Part shown: in pieces, positions 12,563-60,098 of the stretch | Numbering within the stretch: the first letter of the stretch is position 1 | Layout: each line of letters opens with the position of its first letter | Origin: a phage | Direction: 5' to 3' (one strand) | Length of the DNA: 64,000 nucleotides | Sequence record: PZ452610.1 | Notes under the pieces: model-generated | Seen by the model: the letters and a program-made list of their open reading frames with translations, nothing else | Told to the model about the DNA's origin: nothing | Database searches by the model: none | Translations under genes and position numbers: made by a program

Positions 12563-13018
12563 TTAAGCTTTACGAGGAGACACATAGCGAGTGATTTCAG
12601 ATTCTTTAACAACTCGGAAGTCACCTAAGAATACGATATTGTATAACTTTTCACCATCTTCAACCCATTGGTCACTAATGAAGCCACACATGGTATCAGT
12701 TGTGCTTGGATAGCCGTATTCATCGATGAAGTCAAATTCTTTATCAGTCTGGAATTCAACACCTTTACACAAGGCCCATTTGAACTGTGCATTAGGTTCA
12801 GTAGAAGCAAAATGAGCGCTCACATGAGTTTCCAAGAATTTAGGACTTACGTAAGCATATTGAGTATCCTGACGTCCAAAACTAGGAATGATTCGAACTT
12901 TAACTTCTTTAATACGTCCCATGCCATTTGTGCGAAGTCCGACAACTTCAACCAGACGACCTGCGGCTTTAGAACGGGATGCAGTTGATACACGCTTAAT
13001 TTCACCAATAGTAATCAT
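12563..13018 (-). CDS. hypothetical protein, tandem paralog 2 (151 aa)
   Basis: Paralog of 12134..12553 (STASRSKAAGRLVEV and C-terminal WVEDG motif). Confidence 0.55.
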   Translation of the reverse strand: MITIGEIKRVSTASRSKAAGRLVEVVGLRTNGMGRIKEVKVRIIPSFGRQDTQYAYVSPKFLETHVSAHFASTEPNAQFKWALCKGVEFQTDKEFDFIDEYGYPSTTDTMCGFISDQWVEDGEKLYNIVFLGDFRVVKESEITRYVSPRKA

Positions 13019-13046
13019 AATTTCTCTCTTTGTTTAAATTGAATTC

Positions 13047-13076
13047 ACTATACTCCATCCATCCTTGGATGTACAA
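13047..13076 (-). promoter_or_regulatory. early-type promoter
   Basis: Minus strand TTGTAC, 18 bp, TATAGT; ctccatccatccttggatgtac variant of the repeated cassette. Confidence 0.45.
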
Positions 13077-13078
13077 CA

Positions 13079-13573
13079 TTAATTTAGAATATTAACCACA
13101 GCACTACGTGGAACTACACTAAAATCACCTGCATGAACAACGTTCAGAAGTTCAACACCGTCTTCAATCCACTGGTCAGTTACCCAGCCACTTACCGGTC
13201 CAGCGAATGGTCGACGAATTGAAACTGCTTTACACAACAAGTCTGTAGGCTCGATAGGTTTAACTAAAGTACCGTACATAGAAGCGATGTCCATATCAAA
13301 GTGGAGACCATCTTTAACAGGTGCTTCTCCAATCAACAGTTCAAAGTCGGTGCTTGGAAGGGCGGTAGTAGAAATTGTACCATATGAATTTTTAATTTCT
13401 AAGAATAACCAAGGGCCTTCAGCTTGTTTGATGAAGTTAACAATAGTGAAACTATTACCTTGAGTGGCACCTAAAATTTCACAAAACTTTTCATAAGCTC
13501 GCACTGAAGCACCGTACCAGTTGATTTGTTTTTCGTCTTTCAGGATGTAAGTGGCCGTAGTATTGATATTCAT
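13079..13573 (-). CDS. hypothetical protein, tandem paralog 3 (about 164 aa)
   Basis: C-terminal GWVTDQWIEDGVELLNVVHAGDF related to the two upstream ORFs; start moved to MNINTT because the track start overlaps the promoter. Confidence 0.5.
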   Translation of the reverse strand: MNINTTATYILKDEKQINWYGASVRAYEKFCEILGATQGNSFTIVNFIKQAEGPWLFLEIKNSYGTISTTALPSTDFELLIGEAPVKDGLHFDMDIASMYGTLVKPIEPTDLLCKAVSIRRPFAGPVSGWVTDQWIEDGVELLNVVHAGDFSVVPRSAVVNILN

Positions 13574-13603
13574 AATGGTTTCCAGTTTGGTTAAGATAGA
13601 AAG

Positions 13604-13633
13604 ATTATACTCCAACCATCCTTGGTTGTAAAC
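13604..13633 (-). promoter_or_regulatory. early-type promoter (repeated cassette copy)
   Basis: Minus strand GTTTAC-aaccaaggatggttggag-TATAAT; same cassette at 55614 and 56634. Confidence 0.5.
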
Positions 13634-13638
13634 TGTTT

Positions 13639-14316
13639 TTATCGCTGTTTTACACTTAACGGGTCAGGATTCTCAGGGACATCTTCAAGGCCAAGCGCAT
13701 AACGCTGAGCATATTTTAACATCAAAATATCTTTAGCACAATCATGAATACTATCATGGGCAACGAATCCTTTTAGCGTACCCATCGGTAATGGACACAT
13801 ACTTAATCCTCGTGTCAACGAGTAAGCTTCGATTGCTGTACGAATATCACGTTGAGCCCAGAATTTAACCGGTTCTAATTTATCAGTATCAATATCTGGT
13901 TCAAGAACACCTTCATCACGATAGAGGTCACGAATCAAATCGACCAAGATCGGGAAGTCAAAGCTCATACCACGGCACCACATCTGTGATTTCCATTGGT
14001 CAACTTTATTAGCTCGACAATAATCTAAAAAGATTTTAATGCCTTCAAGCGTAGTGACATCGTCTTCAGACGGAGCCAAGTTTTTACGTGCTTCAGCCGA
14101 TTGTTCTTTCCACCATTTCATAGTGGATTTAGCGAAAACTCGCTTCCCTTTCTGAGAAGCTAAATTAAATTTAATTCGCTTACCTCGTTGAACAAGTTCT
14201 TCAAATGATTCAACAACTTCAGGGTCGGAATTATATGCAATAACCGCAAGGTCAATAACAGCCGCTTTTGATGTATTGCCGAATGTTTCAAAGTCTATAA
14301 TAACATCAGTGCTCAT
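13639..14316 (-). CDS. dexA: exonuclease A (DEDDh 3'-5' exonuclease)
   Basis: 225 aa; N-terminal IIDFETFG Exo I motif; position between motB-like region and dda as in T4. Confidence 0.8.
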   Translation of the reverse strand: MSTDVIIDFETFGNTSKAAVIDLAVIAYNSDPEVVESFEELVQRGKRIKFNLASQKGKRVFAKSTMKWWKEQSAEARKNLAPSEDDVTTLEGIKIFLDYCRANKVDQWKSQMWCRGMSFDFPILVDLIRDLYRDEGVLEPDIDTDKLEPVKFWAQRDIRTAIEAYSLTRGLSMCPLPMGTLKGFVAHDSIHDCAKDILMLKYAQRYALGLEDVPENPDPLSVKQR

Positions 14317-53670: not shown

Positions 53671-53930
53671 TTAAAATATTCTCGTAGTTGGTCAAAGCCA
53701 CCGATCGAAGTTCCATCAGGAGCAAACACTTGAGGCATAGTCAATCCAACTTGTGATTCACGTCCAAGCTTAACCAGAAGCTCAGCAATTTTCTCATCAT
53801 CAAAAACACCTTTTTCTGGCATAACGTTAATGAATTCGAATGGTTGTTTCTTAACAGTCAGCAATCGTTTCGCATTATCACAATAAATGCATTTATGAAT
53901 AGTAGAGTCATACCCGTACACTTTAAACAT
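53667..53930 (-). CDS. nrdC: thioredoxin/glutaredoxin NrdC
   Basis: 87 aa from MFKVYG start; near-identical to T4 NrdC (MFKVYGYDS.IHKC.YCDNAKRLLTVKKQPFEFIN). Confidence 0.9.
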   Translation of the reverse strand: MFKVYGYDSTIHKCIYCDNAKRLLTVKKQPFEFINVMPEKGVFDDEKIAELLVKLGRESQVGLTMPQVFAPDGTSIGGFDQLREYFK

Positions 53931-54336
53931 TATTTTTCCTTTCATCGATTAAATATGCAACGCCAAATACAATACATGTAATAAAACCTGTGATACAGAT
54001 AGAAACCAACAACACTGTACCAAAGAACCAAATCAGGTTATCTTTAGTAGTTTGTTTTATATCCATCTCACGAATTTCTATAGCTATAGTATCACCTTTA
54101 TTCAGAAGCGTATAAAACGACGGTGATACATGCCTGTCAAAAACTCGTCCTTGCTCATCTTTATAGACTGCAATAAATTCTAATTTAGAATATTTTCCTG
54201 TAGATTGACCTGAGATTAATTCCACTACCTCCACAGGAATTACTTTAGTTTCCATGTAAGTATTCTGACTGTTCCAAATGAATGGAATAATAGCAAAAAC
54301 TAAAGCTGCGATAAAACAACGAAGGCTATATCTCAT
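53923..54336 (-). CDS. membrane protein (137 aa)
   Basis: ORF track; N- and C-terminal TM segments. Confidence 0.5.
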   Translation of the reverse strand: MRYSLRCFIAALVFAIIPFIWNSQNTYMETKVIPVEVVELISGQSTGKYSKLEFIAVYKDEQGRVFDRHVSPSFYTLLNKGDTIAIEIREMDIKQTTKDNLIWFFGTVLLVSICITGFITCIVFGVAYLIDERKNNV

Positions 54337-54641
54337 TATAATGTTCTCTCAAATTTGTGGAAGCATTTACGGCATTTCAATTTCAAGTTATCACTGGTCC
54401 AGTTAACCAGTTGGACTTGGATAGTTCCACATTCCGGACATGGATGTTTTGCTGCCGATTTGGCAGCATTTTCACGTCGTTCAACCATTTTCATGATTTC
54501 GTTCCATGCTGGAGGAACGAACTCTTCTTCACCGTGGATTTTATCTCGCTGAACAAATTCAATCTTTGAACTATCGTCAATAAACTTAACCAAGCGGTGA
54601 TTAGTGTTCATATCAATATCCTCTAAAAGACGTAGTTTCAT
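54336..54641 (-). CDS. zinc-finger protein (101 aa)
   Basis: CPECG...CRKC motif pair. Confidence 0.5.
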   Translation of the reverse strand: MKLRLLEDIDMNTNHRLVKFIDDSSKIEFVQRDKIHGEEEFVPPAWNEIMKMVERRENAAKSAAKHPCPECGTIQVQLVNWTSDNLKLKCRKCFHKFERTL

Positions 54642-55585
54642 TATAACACCTCAATGGCATTTCGTAAACCATCCGCTTTCGCATTCAGAGCTTTTAACGA
54701 TTTAGTCTGTTCTTTAATCTGGGCTTCGACTTCTTTCAGACGAGATTTGAGATATTCGCGTTCTTCGGCCATGATATCGACCTTTTCTGCTTTAGGTTCT
54801 TTAATAGGCTTAAACACATTAGGGTTCTTCAGTTTAATTTTAATTCGAGAACTGAATAACATTGAACCGTTATCTTCGGTTTCGTCGAACATTTCAACAA
54901 CATCCATAGTCTGTAACATCATGCGAAGTTTATAAGACAGAGAACGAATGGTTTTGTTGCGCTTATTAATTTCTTCGGCTTTCATGGTACCGAGATTACG
55001 TGAGTAATAATAAGGAACCTGGATATCAATTGATAACGATGCGTTACCATTACCAGTTGGTTTGAATACTGCAGTAACCCAATCTTTAACATGAACTTTA
55101 TTTGTACGACCATCGCCGCCTGTGAATAATTTACGTGAATGTTTAAAAAGCATATTCACTTGGTTATTGAATTCACAAGCAAATTTATCAGCAAATTTAG
55201 TTTCAGGAATGGTGGAGAACCAATCAGCTAAATGAGTCTTTTTAACATCATTAACAATAGTGAATTCAACCAAATCGGTTTTAGATGTCACAGATTTAAT
55301 AAAGCTCGGTTTCATAAAGTTTTTAATGTTATCACGAGCCACAGTAGAAGATAATAAACGAGAACGTTTGAACCATTGAAGCAACGTCCCTAATGAATGA
55401 GAATATGCATTTTGAGTATCTTTACAGATATGATTTTCTTGGCCTGTGTATGTACCAAAATCGCGAAGAATACCACTTACTACATCTCGGTGTGGAACAT
55501 CAAATCCTAATGAACCAGAAGCACGTTGGGCATGAACGTTAGCGATAAGACCTGCAAAGTATTCAATGTAATGTGAACGTGTCAT
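54641..55585 (-). CDS. hypothetical protein (314 aa) with C-terminal coiled-coil-like tail
   Basis: ORF track; preceded by conserved promoter cassette. Confidence 0.55.
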   Translation of the reverse strand: MTRSHYIEYFAGLIANVHAQRASGSLGFDVPHRDVVSGILRDFGTYTGQENHICKDTQNAYSHSLGTLLQWFKRSRLLSSTVARDNIKNFMKPSFIKSVTSKTDLVEFTIVNDVKKTHLADWFSTIPETKFADKFACEFNNQVNMLFKHSRKLFTGGDGRTNKVHVKDWVTAVFKPTGNGNASLSIDIQVPYYYSRNLGTMKAEEINKRNKTIRSLSYKLRMMLQTMDVVEMFDETEDNGSMLFSSRIKIKLKNPNVFKPIKEPKAEKVDIMAEEREYLKSRLKEVEAQIKEQTKSLKALNAKADGLRNAIEVL

Positions 55586-55613
55586 AATATTTTCCTCTCG
55601 TTAAGATAGATTC

Positions 55614-55643
55614 ATTATACTCCAACCATCCTTGGTTGTAAAC
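55614..55643 (-). promoter_or_regulatory. early-type promoter (repeated cassette copy)
   Basis: Minus strand GTTTAC-aaccaaggatggttggag-TATAAT, identical core to 13604-13633. Confidence 0.5.
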
Positions 55644-55647
55644 TATT

Positions 55648-56607
55648 TTATGATTTTAACGCATTCATTGCGTTAAAAAGTTTAGAATACTGCAACTGGA
55701 GATTCGTTACAACACTTTGAGCATCACGAAGCTTAGCTTGTGCTTTGTCAAGTTCAACAGACAGTTGGTCCATAGTGGCCTTGATTTGATTGTAATGGTA
55801 ATCTTCGGCCGGAAGAAGGTCATTAGAAACATTTAGTTTTACTGCAGACAGTTTGCACACATTTGGCAAACCTTTAAACATTGATTTACCCGAAGTAGAA
55901 TAAGCACTTAGGACTTCGGCCTGTTCAATTGGGGTCCCAGTAAGCGATGCTTCAAACAATGCATTTTCCTTTTTAAGATTTTGATAATATTCGGAGTCTT
56001 TGTGCCACCATGGCGCAGGAACCTTTTTACCAATAGATACACGAGCCTGGATAGCGATATGGCCCTTATTCTTGATAAGGTCGATAATATTAAGCTCACG
56101 AGAATAAATCGCTTTAATCTGGTGGATATTATCACCTAAAACTTCCAACGCTTGGTGGAATACACGAGCGACATTATCATTCTTAGGTTTATACGTAAGA
56201 GTGAACTCATTCTCACTGATAACCATGATTTCCAACTTATCGTAAGTATATTTCAAATGTTTCATGTTAATTGCTTGAGGACGAATACGAGAAGCAATGG
56301 CCATCAGATTGTTAAGGTTATTCCGGAACTGCTTAGCGAAATATTGTCCTTCACCGCCAATACAAAAATTACGAAGTTTCTGTTTGGCCAATAAACGGCT
56401 GAACTCACCATTTTTAATGAACTCTTTAACGGGTGTGTTAGTAACGCATTCAAATTGAGTAAACTTACGAGAAGTAATCCCATAATATGAACAGATTTCC
56501 TCAATCTCTTCAGGAGTCTTTACAGGCATACGGATAGGATTAGGTCCTGGAGTATATGCGTTCGAGGTAAATTCTTTGATAAGTTCTCTACGTGTAATAA
56601 AAGCCAT
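55648..56607 (-). CDS. hypothetical protein (319 aa) with C-terminal coiled-coil-like tail
   Basis: ORF track; preceded by conserved promoter cassette. Confidence 0.55.
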   Translation of the reverse strand: MAFITRRELIKEFTSNAYTPGPNPIRMPVKTPEEIEEICSYYGITSRKFTQFECVTNTPVKEFIKNGEFSRLLAKQKLRNFCIGGEGQYFAKQFRNNLNNLMAIASRIRPQAINMKHLKYTYDKLEIMVISENEFTLTYKPKNDNVARVFHQALEVLGDNIHQIKAIYSRELNIIDLIKNKGHIAIQARVSIGKKVPAPWWHKDSEYYQNLKKENALFEASLTGTPIEQAEVLSAYSTSGKSMFKGLPNVCKLSAVKLNVSNDLLPAEDYHYNQIKATMDQLSVELDKAQAKLRDAQSVVTNLQLQYSKLFNAMNALKS

Positions 56608-56633
56608 TTTATATTCCTCATGTTGAAAAATTT

Positions 56634-56662
56634 ATTATACTCCAACCATCCTTGGTTGTACA
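56634..56662 (-). promoter_or_regulatory. early-type promoter (repeated cassette copy)
   Basis: Minus strand TGTACAACCAAGGATGGTTGGAGTATAAT. Confidence 0.5.
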
Positions 56663-57658
56663 TCATTCCTTAAGAAGTTTTACTACCTGAATAAGATTAG
56701 CTCGTTCTGTTTTATTTTTACCGTTTAAGCCTGCTAATCGTGAGATTTCATCGTCAGTCTGTTGAATAGTTACATTAAGTTCGTTAATCAAAGCTTCAAA
56801 GTATTTGATTTGCTCAGCATGTTTTGATTCAAATTTCTGAACCGGAATAACGTCTTGGTTCAGTTCATCAATAAGGTCTTTAAGAGCATCTTCTTGGTTG
56901 ATATCATATTCAACTTCTTTTATTTCTTCAACGAGCTCGTCTTTATATCTAACGTCTTTTAGTCCTGGAGCTGGTCCTGAAATCTCTTCTTTAAGAGTAC
57001 AAACATACCCAATACGGTATCCAACGCCGTCTCGCTTGATATCAACTTCGTCGATAAATCCACAATGTTTAAGTCCAGAGCCGATTATGTCAAAATATCC
57101 TTGACGTCGTCCTTCAAACGTTACACGAACTACTAAGACGGTTTTGCCACCGACCTTTTGAAGCTCACATTTATAAAAGTTTGTTGAACCTGAATAACAT
57201 GGATGAGTTTTAAAGTTCATCTGACGATCTAGGCCCATTTGTAAACGTGCTGTTACGGCCATAAAACGTGTTTGGTTCTCGTTAAGATGAGCAACAATCC
57301 ATTTCAAAGGCATTTTACCCTGTTCACGGCCGAACAAATCAGTACGTCCTAGATTACGCAGGATGTTGTTAGAGTTAATCATCGACAGAACGTTAAGTTT
57401 ATTCAGCGCGCTGAAGATTCCATCAGCCATTGATTTTCCATAACCTTTACACGCTTTAATAAGTGCTCGCGGCAGATTAGTATAGATTTCAGACGGCATA
57501 TGAAAATCAAATTTACTAGTCAGTAATTGATGAACTTGGATAGCAATTTGCTCATAATTAAGTGCTCTGCGATCGTTATGGTCTTTAAACCATACTTTAA
57601 TCTGTGAAGCACATAAACCGTTAATTTCATGTTTTACCGCATCAGATGTAATGCTCAT
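56663..57658 (-). CDS. hypothetical protein (331 aa) with C-terminal coiled-coil-like tail
   Basis: ORF track; preceded by a degenerate copy of the promoter cassette. Confidence 0.55.
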   Translation of the reverse strand: MSITSDAVKHEINGLCASQIKVWFKDHNDRRALNYEQIAIQVHQLLTSKFDFHMPSEIYTNLPRALIKACKGYGKSMADGIFSALNKLNVLSMINSNNILRNLGRTDLFGREQGKMPLKWIVAHLNENQTRFMAVTARLQMGLDRQMNFKTHPCYSGSTNFYKCELQKVGGKTVLVVRVTFEGRRQGYFDIIGSGLKHCGFIDEVDIKRDGVGYRIGYVCTLKEEISGPAPGLKDVRYKDELVEEIKEVEYDINQEDALKDLIDELNQDVIPVQKFESKHAEQIKYFEALINELNVTIQQTDDEISRLAGLNGKNKTERANLIQVVKLLKE

Positions 57659-57693
57659 AACTATTTCCTCGGATTGAATTGGAACTCAAAACC

Positions 57694-57717
57694 ATTATAA
57701 CCCGTCCTTGGGTAAAG
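57694..57717 (-). promoter_or_regulatory. degenerate copy of promoter cassette (spacer 12 bp)
   Basis: Minus strand CTTTAC-cccaaggacggg-TTATAAT; about 6 bp shorter than functional-looking copies. Confidence 0.25.
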
Positions 57718-57720
57718 CGT

Positions 57721-58248
57721 TTATGCGTGAACCGACTTTAAACGTTCTTCAAATTTCCGAAGAGTACTAATACGTTCTGCTTTCTGTTTTGTATAGTTTG
57801 CAATACGTTCTGAAGTGAGAGCGTATCGTTCGTTTACTGTTTCTTTCATGAAGTCAGGGATTTCACGAGAAGCTTTAATTTCATCAAACTTATCGAGTAC
57901 TGCCTGGTCTTCAGCAATTAAATTTTCGTACATCTCGATATCTTTCTTGATGAAGTCGATATCTTCCTGGGTTACTTTGGATAAACGAGATGCTTTATCC
58001 TTTTTGTACTGCTCGTTAGTTTCACGAGACCAGAATAATGTACGTTTTTTGTTAGTGTTTTTGTAGACTTCCACAATTCCAACTGAATCGATGATAACAA
58101 TCCAATTCCAGCGAGATTTGAAAATCTGACCTCCGTCCACGGTAATCTCGTTACCATAAGCAATGTCATTAAAGAACTTACTTTGTGCTTCGGATTTAAA
58201 TTTACCGTCGTTATAATTTACCAGGTTGAAAATATCTTTAGCGTTCAT
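57721..58248 (-). CDS. hypothetical protein (175 aa) with C-terminal coiled-coil-like half
   Basis: ORF track; GAGGT RBS; early promoter at 58276-58304. Confidence 0.55.
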   Translation of the reverse strand: MNAKDIFNLVNYNDGKFKSEAQSKFFNDIAYGNEITVDGGQIFKSRWNWIVIIDSVGIVEVYKNTNKKRTLFWSRETNEQYKKDKASRLSKVTQEDIDFIKKDIEMYENLIAEDQAVLDKFDEIKASREIPDFMKETVNERYALTSERIANYTKQKAERISTLRKFEERLKSVHA

Positions 58249-58275: not shown

Positions 58276-58304
58276 ATAATAACATAACCATAGACCTTGT
58301 AAAC
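58276..58304 (-). promoter_or_regulatory. early-type promoter with stem-loop (repeated cassette)
   Basis: Minus strand GTTTAC, 17 bp, TATTAT; GGTCTAT/ATAGACC stem; copy of 25125-25174. Confidence 0.5.
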
Positions 58305-58306
58305 AA

Positions 58307-58594
58307 CTAAAAGAAACTTTTTTCGGTATTTTTTCCACTGAACCAAACAGACTTCGGGATTTTTTGTAATTTTTCAGATTTAAGTTTCTCTTCCTGTTCT
58401 TTCTTATATACACCCTTGTCGTACTGGAGCATCTCTATGACATTCTTTTGCAAACGATCTAAGGTAATTAAGGCTTTAGTTTTTCCTTTCAAGGAAGAGT
58501 CCTGGCGAACCTCCTCGCTATATTGCATTGTAGAACTAACCATACGATGAGCATAGAGTTCGACTGCGGCTTTAATTTTTTGCATAAAATCCAT
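58307..58594 (-). CDS. hypothetical protein (95 aa)
   Basis: ORF track; AGAGGA RBS. Confidence 0.45.
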   Translation of the reverse strand: MDFMQKIKAAVELYAHRMVSSTMQYSEEVRQDSSLKGKTKALITLDRLQKNVIEMLQYDKGVYKKEQEEKLKSEKLQKIPKSVWFSGKNTEKSFF

Positions 58595-59831: not shown

Positions 59832-60098
59832 TTACTTATCACACTTAGCAACATAATTAGGCATATCACAGAATACAGAGCGAGTAACTACTCGACCCTT
59901 TGACCATGCTTCAGTTGCTTGTCCGGCCGTGCTATTAATATAGCTTGATTTAATGTTCTCAATACCCTGAGAATGTGATGCATTTACCGAACCGTTAGAA
60001 GGCCCAGAAGACTGGTTACCACCAGCTCCTGCGCCCGTGGTAGCACCAACAGAGAATGCCATCATTACTGCGAATAAACCAATTACTAATTTTTTCAT
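59832..60098 (-). CDS. small secreted protein (88 aa)
   Basis: N-terminal signal peptide MKKLVIGLFAVMMAFSVGA; Gly/Ser-rich linker; TATAAATA late promoter upstream, UUCG hairpin downstream. Confidence 0.55.
   Translation of the reverse strand: MKKLVIGLFAVMMAFSVGATTGAGAGGNQSSGPSNGSVNASHSQGIENIKSSYINSTAGQATEAWSKGRVVTRSVFCDMPNYVAKCDK

Follow-up and report, generated by a model that had tools for sequence, protein, structure and literature searches.

The nrdC.3-nrdC.6 array of a T4-like coliphage as a probable family of strongly diverged tandem paralogs with a putative role in counter-defence

Are neighbouring phage genes that share a helical C-terminal end, and nothing else that can be seen by eye, the descendants of one gene or unrelated domains assembled on a common tail? 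The question is raised by four adjacent open reading frames (ORFs) on the minus strand of sequence record PZ452610.1, of which a stretch of 64,000 nucleotides, here called the window, was analysed. The original prediction, made from the sequence alone, took these ORFs for different N-terminal domains with similar coiled-coil-like tails and proposed that modules sharing an interaction tail had been acquired repeatedly, possibly for host takeover or anti-defence. The ORFs, which lie on the minus strand exactly where it had placed them, are labelled A314 (54641-55585, 314 aa), B319 (55648-56607, 319 aa), C331 (56663-57658, 331 aa) and D175 (57721-58248, 175 aa), and each is preceded by a GAGG-type Shine-Dalgarno sequence. 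We find that A314, B319 and C331 are, judged from their sequences, very probably full-length diverged tandem paralogs. The best overall explanation, to which we assign a probability of about 0.6, is a paralog family with an early counter-defence role. The window belongs to a Mosigvirus, a T4-like coliphage: the 4.4 kb around the array has exact counterparts (100% identity) in Escherichia coli O157 typing phages 3, 6 and 13, and further phages, including Escherichia phage 55, which is classified as Mosigvirus, match it at 97-98% identity; 605 phage records match this region in total.

Gene identities were derived from comparison with the annotated T4 genome and from blastp. A314 is the ortholog of T4 nrdC.3 (58% identity, E = 3e-123; against nrdC.4, E = 7e-5) and belongs to PF26897 (Phage_T4_Y04OP; PHROG 1435), a family that includes both nrdC.3 and nrdC.4. 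The family profile of A314 retrieves 82 proteins, all previously annotated as PF26897, among them P0064, which is 96% identical to A314. B319 is a homologue of nrdC.5, with 25% identity to T4 NrdC.5 over 308 aa (E = 4e-10). It matches the model of DUF7235 (PF23882; DUF, domain of unknown function) over its full length, residues 15-318 aligning to model positions 1-307 at 413.7 bits (cut-off 30), compared with 420.6 bits for T4 NrdC.5 itself. It also holds the same place as nrdC.5, between the nrdC.6-type and nrdC.3/4-type genes, in T4, in the window and in loci L002-L010 of the sample described below. C331 is a homologue of nrdC.6 of the PF26899 (Phage_T4_Y05B) type (PHROG 2257). Its 37% identity to T4 nrdC.6 is limited to the N-terminal 139 aa (E = 3e-18), and the two fall into one phmmer cluster at E < 1e-6; the PF26899 label itself was observed solely on a T4-like protein of 277 aa, to which C331 is linked through its similarity to nrdC.6. 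D175 is the ortholog of nrdC.8, with 83% identity over all 175 residues, and belongs to PF26901 (Phage_T4_Y05D; PHROG 2274), a label annotated on a 175-aa homologue in locus L022. Confident homology to T4 nrdC.x structural genes had been named at the outset as something that would refute the prediction. The homology is present, and the T4 genes concerned are early ORFs, not structural genes.

Pairwise identity among A314, B319 and C331 is about 10-19% in every segment, which is why nothing is visible by eye. The syntenic region was compared across T4 and 19 other T4-like contigs, found through their nrdC.10 homologue (loci are numbered with L, L001 being T4), and the array ORFs were clustered; c8 and c11 below are clusters of array family members. 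To these were added the 82 nrdC.3/4-type proteins and, out of a scan that covered 1.84 billion proteins, 22 representatives. Early full-length HMMER links, made with small alignments, ran mainly through the tail, and for this reason the last 65 residues were stripped in all later tests of the bodies. The small locus-derived alignments, once tail-stripped, linked just C331 with c11, and A314 with C331 weakly; the relationships became clear after the added sequences. In core-only hhalign comparisons A314 matches C331 with a probability of 96.8% (E = 2.9e-10, 137 columns, A314 63-248 against C331 75-222) and B319 matches C331 with 80.4% (E = 1.3e-5), so that the statement of the original prediction that the N-terminal domains show no similarity does not hold. 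All three cores also match the c11 type (A314 97.1%, C331 97.5%, B319 86.3%), with links at E = 6.8e-11 and 4.8e-6. Overall, the tail-stripped profile matches span 84-169 collinear columns (84-137 among the three large proteins) with E-values down to 1e-10 to 1e-12. As controls served reversed alignments, the core of D175 and a family of 260 aa that is unrelated; none rose above 0.6% or had an E-value under 0.1.

Single sequences give the same picture. In phmmer searches, 153 tail-stripped members form one component at E < 1e-3, and about 800 decoy ORFs, drawn from the phage regions that were sampled, gave no match to any of them at E < 1e-2. A natural chimera, P0103, was excluded before this network was judged; a merger of the T4 nrdC.5 and nrdC.3 clusters at E < 1e-15 had proved to be an artefact of that protein. 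An L-INS-i alignment of 17 diverse members has an identical motif order in all families, beginning with 'f(K/R)xSRLLSxxxAxxxLxNF' and 'FxxxxxNxxxhLxxgsRLxxGDxR' and continuing with a helix 'LxxxLxxMDxVE', a linker containing 'PxxPvExxH' and the tail end 'QRxKLxxAhxxL'. A homologue search with B319 returned close relatives only (at least 80% identity), and the superfamily alignment as query added three c11-type proteins. The superfamily profile recovered 27 clusters (50% identity) in the 1.84 billion proteins, all of which map to array families; as far as these searches reach, the superfamily is small and specific to T4-like phages. That the genes are T4-family ORFs present in Pfam, and that one relative has a published anti-defence role, is already known. 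What these profiles add is the proposed union of PF26897, DUF7235 and PF26899, which Pfam keeps separate, as one superfamily with a defined architecture.

The fourth gene stands apart. The D175 core reaches at most 0.4% against the A314, B319 and C331 cores in hhalign, its tail at most 5.5% against their tails, and iterated searches with hidden Markov models of the superfamily never recruit it. By these comparisons D175 is unrelated to the other three in both body and tail and represents a different, far better conserved family, nrdC.8 proteins sharing 67-98% identity across genera. Its N-terminal 75 or so residues look strand-rich from the sequence and are followed by a helical, coiled-coil-like C-terminal half; a PDB profile search produced only sub-threshold coiled-coil matches, at residues 85-171. 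The similarity first proposed for all four tails thus stands for A314, B319 and C331, whose tails are homologous, but not for D175, whose C-terminal segment (residues 146-175; 57724-57813, minus strand) is heptad-like yet unrelated to them. D175 would accordingly be regarded as a slowly evolving early gene that merely adjoins the array.

The tails were scored with a home-made heptad measure (hydrophobic residues at a/d positions, polar or charged ones elsewhere, 28-residue windows, best register) and compared with 200 shuffles of each protein. All four proteins do end in a heptad-like segment, as had been claimed: the score exceeds the 95th percentile of the shuffles solely in the C-terminal segments and in one internal segment of A314 (p at most 0.015), the positive regions being A314 263-314 (and, internally, 200-232), B319 267-319, C331 278-310 and D175 146-175. 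The neighbouring 95- and 101-aa ORFs show no heptad signal by the same score. On the minus strand, the A314 tail (residues 273-314; 54644-54769) ends in LRNAIEVL, that of B319 (residues 267-319; 55651-55809) in YSKLFNAMNALKS and that of C331 (residues 278-331; 56666-56827) in RANLIQVVKLLKE. Hydrophobic residues of the A314 tail follow a 3-4 spacing (L279, L283, V286, I290, L297, L300, A304, L307, I311, L314; a/d positions taken directly from its sequence). AlphaFold2 predicts a single long helix of 41-52 residues, covering 273-313 in A314 (predicted local distance difference test score, pLDDT, about 66-85) and 267-318 in B319 (pLDDT 70-80), and sequence searches of the PDB returned, on the tail, sub-threshold coiled-coil proteins only (GCN4, NEMO, prefoldin).

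Tail-only hhalign comparisons find matches among A314, B319, C331 and other subfamilies (B319 to C331 86%, to c11 90%, to c8 88%), and the terminal motif QRxKLxxAhxxL is fixed across 17 subfamilies. Among nrdC.3 orthologs the tail is the best-conserved part, with a mean identity of 86%; the body averages 79-81% and the linker 63%. The segment of B319 just before the tail, residues 225-266, has a mean identity of 56% and is full of indels; the corresponding stretch of the window (55810-55935) is replaced or indel-ridden among relatives that are otherwise 87-95% identical, and by its sequence the segment is a hypervariable linker or surface. At the DNA level, no repeats were found between the tail-coding segments, the sole repeat being the promoter cassette described below. 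T4 nrdC.6 (L001 12067-12894) has lost most of the conserved tail, shows no heptad signal and ends in ...MMMKFSDYLD, whereas C331 and the nrdC.6 relatives of loci L005-L015 have the full tail.

The AlphaFold2 model of A314 (mean pLDDT 80, predicted template modelling score 0.72) consists of a helical N-region (1-88) and an alpha/beta core (93-258). Five helices (3-88) are followed by a three-stranded meander (93-119) and a long helix (127-154) that ends at the conserved G157-D158-x-R160; then come a beta-beta unit (170-188), a helix (203-226), a second beta-beta unit (230-252) and, after a disordered linker (263-269), the tail helix (273-313). Foldseek against BFVD matches the model over its full length to uncharacterised proteins of 310-375 aa from T4-like phages of Acinetobacter, Erwinia, Serratia, Klebsiella and Aeromonas (E = 9e-8 to 6e-4, 10-19% identity). 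Against the PDB there is no significant match, the best being LAGLIDADG meganucleases (E = 0.025, template modelling score about 0.13). The modelled fold has no confident known relative, and its resemblances to tail terminators and to LAGLIDADG proteins are weak and serve as leads only.

How did the array come about? In the distant T4-like loci L011-L021 the family has a single member, placed immediately upstream of the nrdC.2 homologue, while there are three in this phage and in L005-L010 and four in T4 (nrdC.3, nrdC.4, nrdC.5, nrdC.6). Taken with the tail-stripped matches and the collinear motifs, the single copy in the distant loci argues for an array built by whole-gene duplication and divergence, and against the repeated acquisition of modules that had been suggested. 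The ortholog pairs A314/nrdC.3, B319/nrdC.5 and C331/nrdC.6 imply in turn that the duplications predate the Tequatrovirus-Mosigvirus split. The two arrays are alike in context, A314 being the nrdC.3 ortholog and C331 a relative of nrdC.6, and they differ in that nrdC.4 is missing from this phage and that C331 keeps the tail that T4 nrdC.6 lost. Divergence has been rapid: T4 and this phage share 58%, 25% and 37% identity in A314, B319 and C331, respectively, versus 78-90% in nrdC, 49, nrdC.8, nrdC.10 and nrdC.11.

The array also decays and recombines, as the hybrid ORF P0103 (L022 6001-6900) indicates. In it a T4-type nrdC.5 part (residues 146-272, 94% identity) continues into an nrdC.3-type part (residues 141-314, 74% to A314), which shows illegitimate recombination between members. 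At its locus nrdC.4 is deleted and an unannotated 115-aa ORF lies upstream; the contig concerned is a metagenomic phage sequence of 167 kb, and three further contigs carry the hybrid as well. A separate observation concerns loci L011-L021, where an additional, well-conserved family of 256-284 aa sits at the array position (about 12700-14100; for example L011 12842-13642). Pfam gives no match for this family, which is unrelated to the nrdC.3-6 superfamily and shows no similarity with it.

Each gene has its own T4 early-type promoter cassette, one of them degenerate, as the original prediction had noted. GTTTAC-N16-18-TATAAT is present at four sites in the window, where 0.08 would be expected. 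On the minus strand, the cassette GTTTACAACCAAGGATGGTTGGAGTATAAT (55614-55643; TTTACA-N17-TATAAT) lies upstream of A314, and a second 30-bp copy with two mismatches and TGTACA as its -35 element (56634-56663) lies upstream of B319; both belong to a 43-nt direct repeat. The copy upstream of C331, as read from the sequence (57694-57716; TTTACC, 11-nt spacer, TATAAT), is damaged as a promoter because an 11-nt spacer is too short for the sigma-70 type. D175 is preceded by a different early-type promoter, TTTACA-N16-TATTAT (58276-58303). The T4-type consensus TTTACW-N17-TAYWAT is known for the PeSL cassettes of hyperplastic regions (Arbiol et al. 2010, PMC2839356; Comeau et al. 2014, PMC4122927), which are likewise short repeated early promoters between accessory genes. 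The window cassettes differ in that their inverted repeat (CAACCA/TGGTTG in the A314 cassette) lies within the promoter spacer, has just 6 bp and carries no T-run. No terminator-like site was called at the cassette positions either, and for both reasons 'PeSL-like' describes a resemblance only.

Two further promoter sites were observed. A perfect GTTTAC-N18-TATAAT (54640-54669, minus strand) lies inside the last A314 codons (G-L-R-N-A-I-E-V-L-stop), and the TAA stop of A314 shares bases with the ATG start codon of the nrdC.2 homologue (TAATG); from this arrangement of the sequence, the conserved tail motif of A314 may double as the promoter of the following gene. An exact third copy of the 30-bp cassette is located 40 kb from the array (13604-13633, minus strand), upstream of an ORF at 13079-13615 and beside an ORF at 13639-14316 that we take to resemble a dexA-type exonuclease. 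Identical cassettes at such distant loci fit mobile regulatory cassettes.

What the proteins do is suggested by one relative. When T4 nrdC.5 is supplied from a plasmid, a T4 deletion mutant regains the ability to plate on cells with Dsr1, a SIR2-domain defence protein of ECOR17 (Srikant, Guegler and Laub, eLife 2022; PMC9391042), a result, the only one published for the family, with which the earlier guess of host takeover or anti-defence agrees. Dsr1 shares its sensor with Avs7 and responds to a major capsid protein of phages (PMC13581612); a tail terminator was rejected as its trigger on this ground. Two neighbours from the same region have comparable activities, T6 Gp49.2 inhibiting OLD (PMC13096335) and T4 NrdC.1 inhibiting Septu (bioRxiv 10.1101/2025.11.20.689424), and laboratory growth does not require the nrdC.1-6 block (PMC9825161). 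The array thus resembles the T-even anti-defence islands (dmd-tifA-adfA, 49.2 against OLD, nrdC.1 against Septu) as a cluster of dispensable, fast-evolving early genes. The likeness is an argument from context. Homologues of T4 49.2, 49.3 and nrdC.1 are lacking in this phage (window 53175-54336). Searches of Pfam, NCBIfam and PADLOC gave no match beyond DUFs and no enzyme signature, and almost no polar residue is invariant across the superfamily.

We propose that A314, B319 and C331 are anciently duplicated, strongly diverged paralogs of one gene family of T4-like phages. Each would comprise a variable helical N-region, an alpha/beta core with 'SRLLS...L.NF' and 'hL..gsRL..GD.R', a variable, indel-rich linker and a conserved helix, about 45 residues long, that has a 3-4 hydrophobic repeat and ends in QRxKLxxAhxxL. 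They would be transcribed early, each from its own short cassette, in the hyperplastic nrdC-nrdC.10 region that in T4 is home to several counter-defence genes. They would then act stoichiometrically: the body, which evolves fast, would bind an immune protein of the host (for the DUF7235 member a Dsr1-type SIR2 NADase, as published for T4 NrdC.5), and the conserved tail would form homo-oligomers, or hetero-oligomers with the paralogs. By analogy, an anti-defence role, oligomerisation and direct binding are the likeliest reading for these particular proteins. For B319, a candidate Dsr1-type inhibitor, we consider the chances of an anti-defence role about even; for A314 and C331 such a role is more tentative, the odds being somewhat against it. 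A precedent for the mechanism is DSAD1, a phage protein that binds and blocks the SIR2 NADase defence protein DSR2 (PMC10973363, PMC11087589). There the phages are those of Bacillus and the target is DSR2, not Dsr1, so that the two are likened by mechanism alone.

Several points weigh against this proposal. B319 shares with T4 NrdC.5 the end-to-end model match, the place in the array, a similar length, an early promoter and the same tail, but because the two are just 25% identical the same target is not to be assumed. The published phenotype is confined to T4 NrdC.5, with none for nrdC.3, nrdC.4 or nrdC.6, and the effect of NrdC.5 on Dsr1 could be indirect. Within the homology argument, the direct core link between A314 and B319 is weak (28.6%, E = 6e-4) and depends on intermediates. 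The model of B319, built from a shallow alignment of 23 sequences that are mostly more than 80% identical, has a pLDDT of 40, and only its tail helix is confident. The coiled-coil assignment, finally, comes from an ad hoc score on the sequence and not from a validated predictor.

A rival to common descent is domain shuffling, the model of the original prediction, in which N-terminal modules without kinship came in one by one and were each joined to the same coiled-coil interaction tail. The very low identity in every segment and the early passage of the strongest HMMER links through the tail speak for shuffling, recombinant array hybrids do exist (P0103, nrdC.5::nrdC.3), and the repeated promoter cassettes could mediate such exchanges, as discussed for PeSLs (PMC2839356, PMC4122927). 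It is nevertheless very improbable, since the bodies match without their tails over long collinear stretches with clean controls, the tail-stripped single sequences form one network without decoy matches, the motif order is common along the whole length, and the tails lack the DNA-level similarity that would signal recent transfer of a module. A different view accepts the family and reinterprets its tail as a docking helix for one common partner, which would come from the host or be a conserved product of the phage (that of the neighbouring nrdC.8 or nrdC.9, for example), and not as an oligomerisation domain. The tail is indeed the best-conserved part among orthologs and the 17 subfamilies, its fixed end exceeds what hydrophobic heptads alone would need, and nrdC.8, the adjacent gene, encodes a strongly conserved protein that is helical too; yet about five heptads with a regular a/d pattern typically point to self-association, and T4 nrdC.6 has been retained though most of its tail is gone. 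We consider docking unlikely, though it deserves more weight than the two readings that follow next.

Both of these concern the weak structural leads. The family might derive from, or mimic, a phage tail terminator, an early copy of a late structural fold serving as a decoy for host sensors of conserved virion proteins; this is a long shot. Still less probable is a degenerate LAGLIDADG homing-endonuclease relic, or a DNA-binding regulator dimerising through its coiled coil, that would act on DNA or transcription in host takeover. Beyond the best-ranked but insignificant meganuclease hit (probability at most 0.3 for I-OnuI; template modelling score as given above), the Pfam searches gave no LAGLIDADG or helix-turn-helix match, B319 no longer has the G-D-x-R motif and C331 has it in altered form, and the one tested family member shows an anti-defence phenotype. 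Extending the counter-defence proposal itself, one may speculate that the array is a diversifying set on a single scaffold, each paralog directed at a different immune sensor and Dsr1 being the first known target; the tails might assemble oligomers of multiple specificity, and a terminator-like body might act as a decoy for receptors of virion proteins. We regard this extension as doubtful, about on a par with docking.

The array is flanked by homologues of nrdC.2 (54336-54641) and nrdC.9 (58307-58594); to the flanks also belong an AAA-type protein, the homologue of nrdC.10, and a nucleotidyltransferase, that of nrdC.11. An nrdC.7-like membrane protein (53923-54336) occupies the position of T4 nrdC.1, while in T4 nrdC.7 sits between nrdC.6 and nrdC.8. 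Between the nrdC.10 and nrdC.11 homologues lies an 88-aa ORF (59832-60098, minus strand) with a signal-peptide-like N-terminus, MKKLVIGLFAVMMAFSVGA..., at a position where no gene is annotated in T4. Many GenBank records label nrdC.x array proteins as 'thioredoxin' or 'Mur ligase domain-containing protein', names that apparently stem from propagated nrdC.x gene names; no nrdC.x array protein has a thioredoxin match. In the literature, PMC13275509 treats nrdC.8 as though it were a nucleotide reductase.

The analysis corrects this common annotation error, the 'thioredoxin' label being due to the gene name alone. It also carries a lesson for similar loci: invisible similarity between neighbours of equal length with a common tail can reflect extreme divergence and not modular acquisition. 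For mutagenesis, the family offers a defined architecture of variable body and conserved tail. At present, T-even anti-defence genes are found one by one. If nrdC.3-nrdC.6 are one family, the NrdC.5-Dsr1 phenotype would nominate the three other paralog types as candidates against other defences, and the very divergent versions in other T4-like phages would likewise become candidates.

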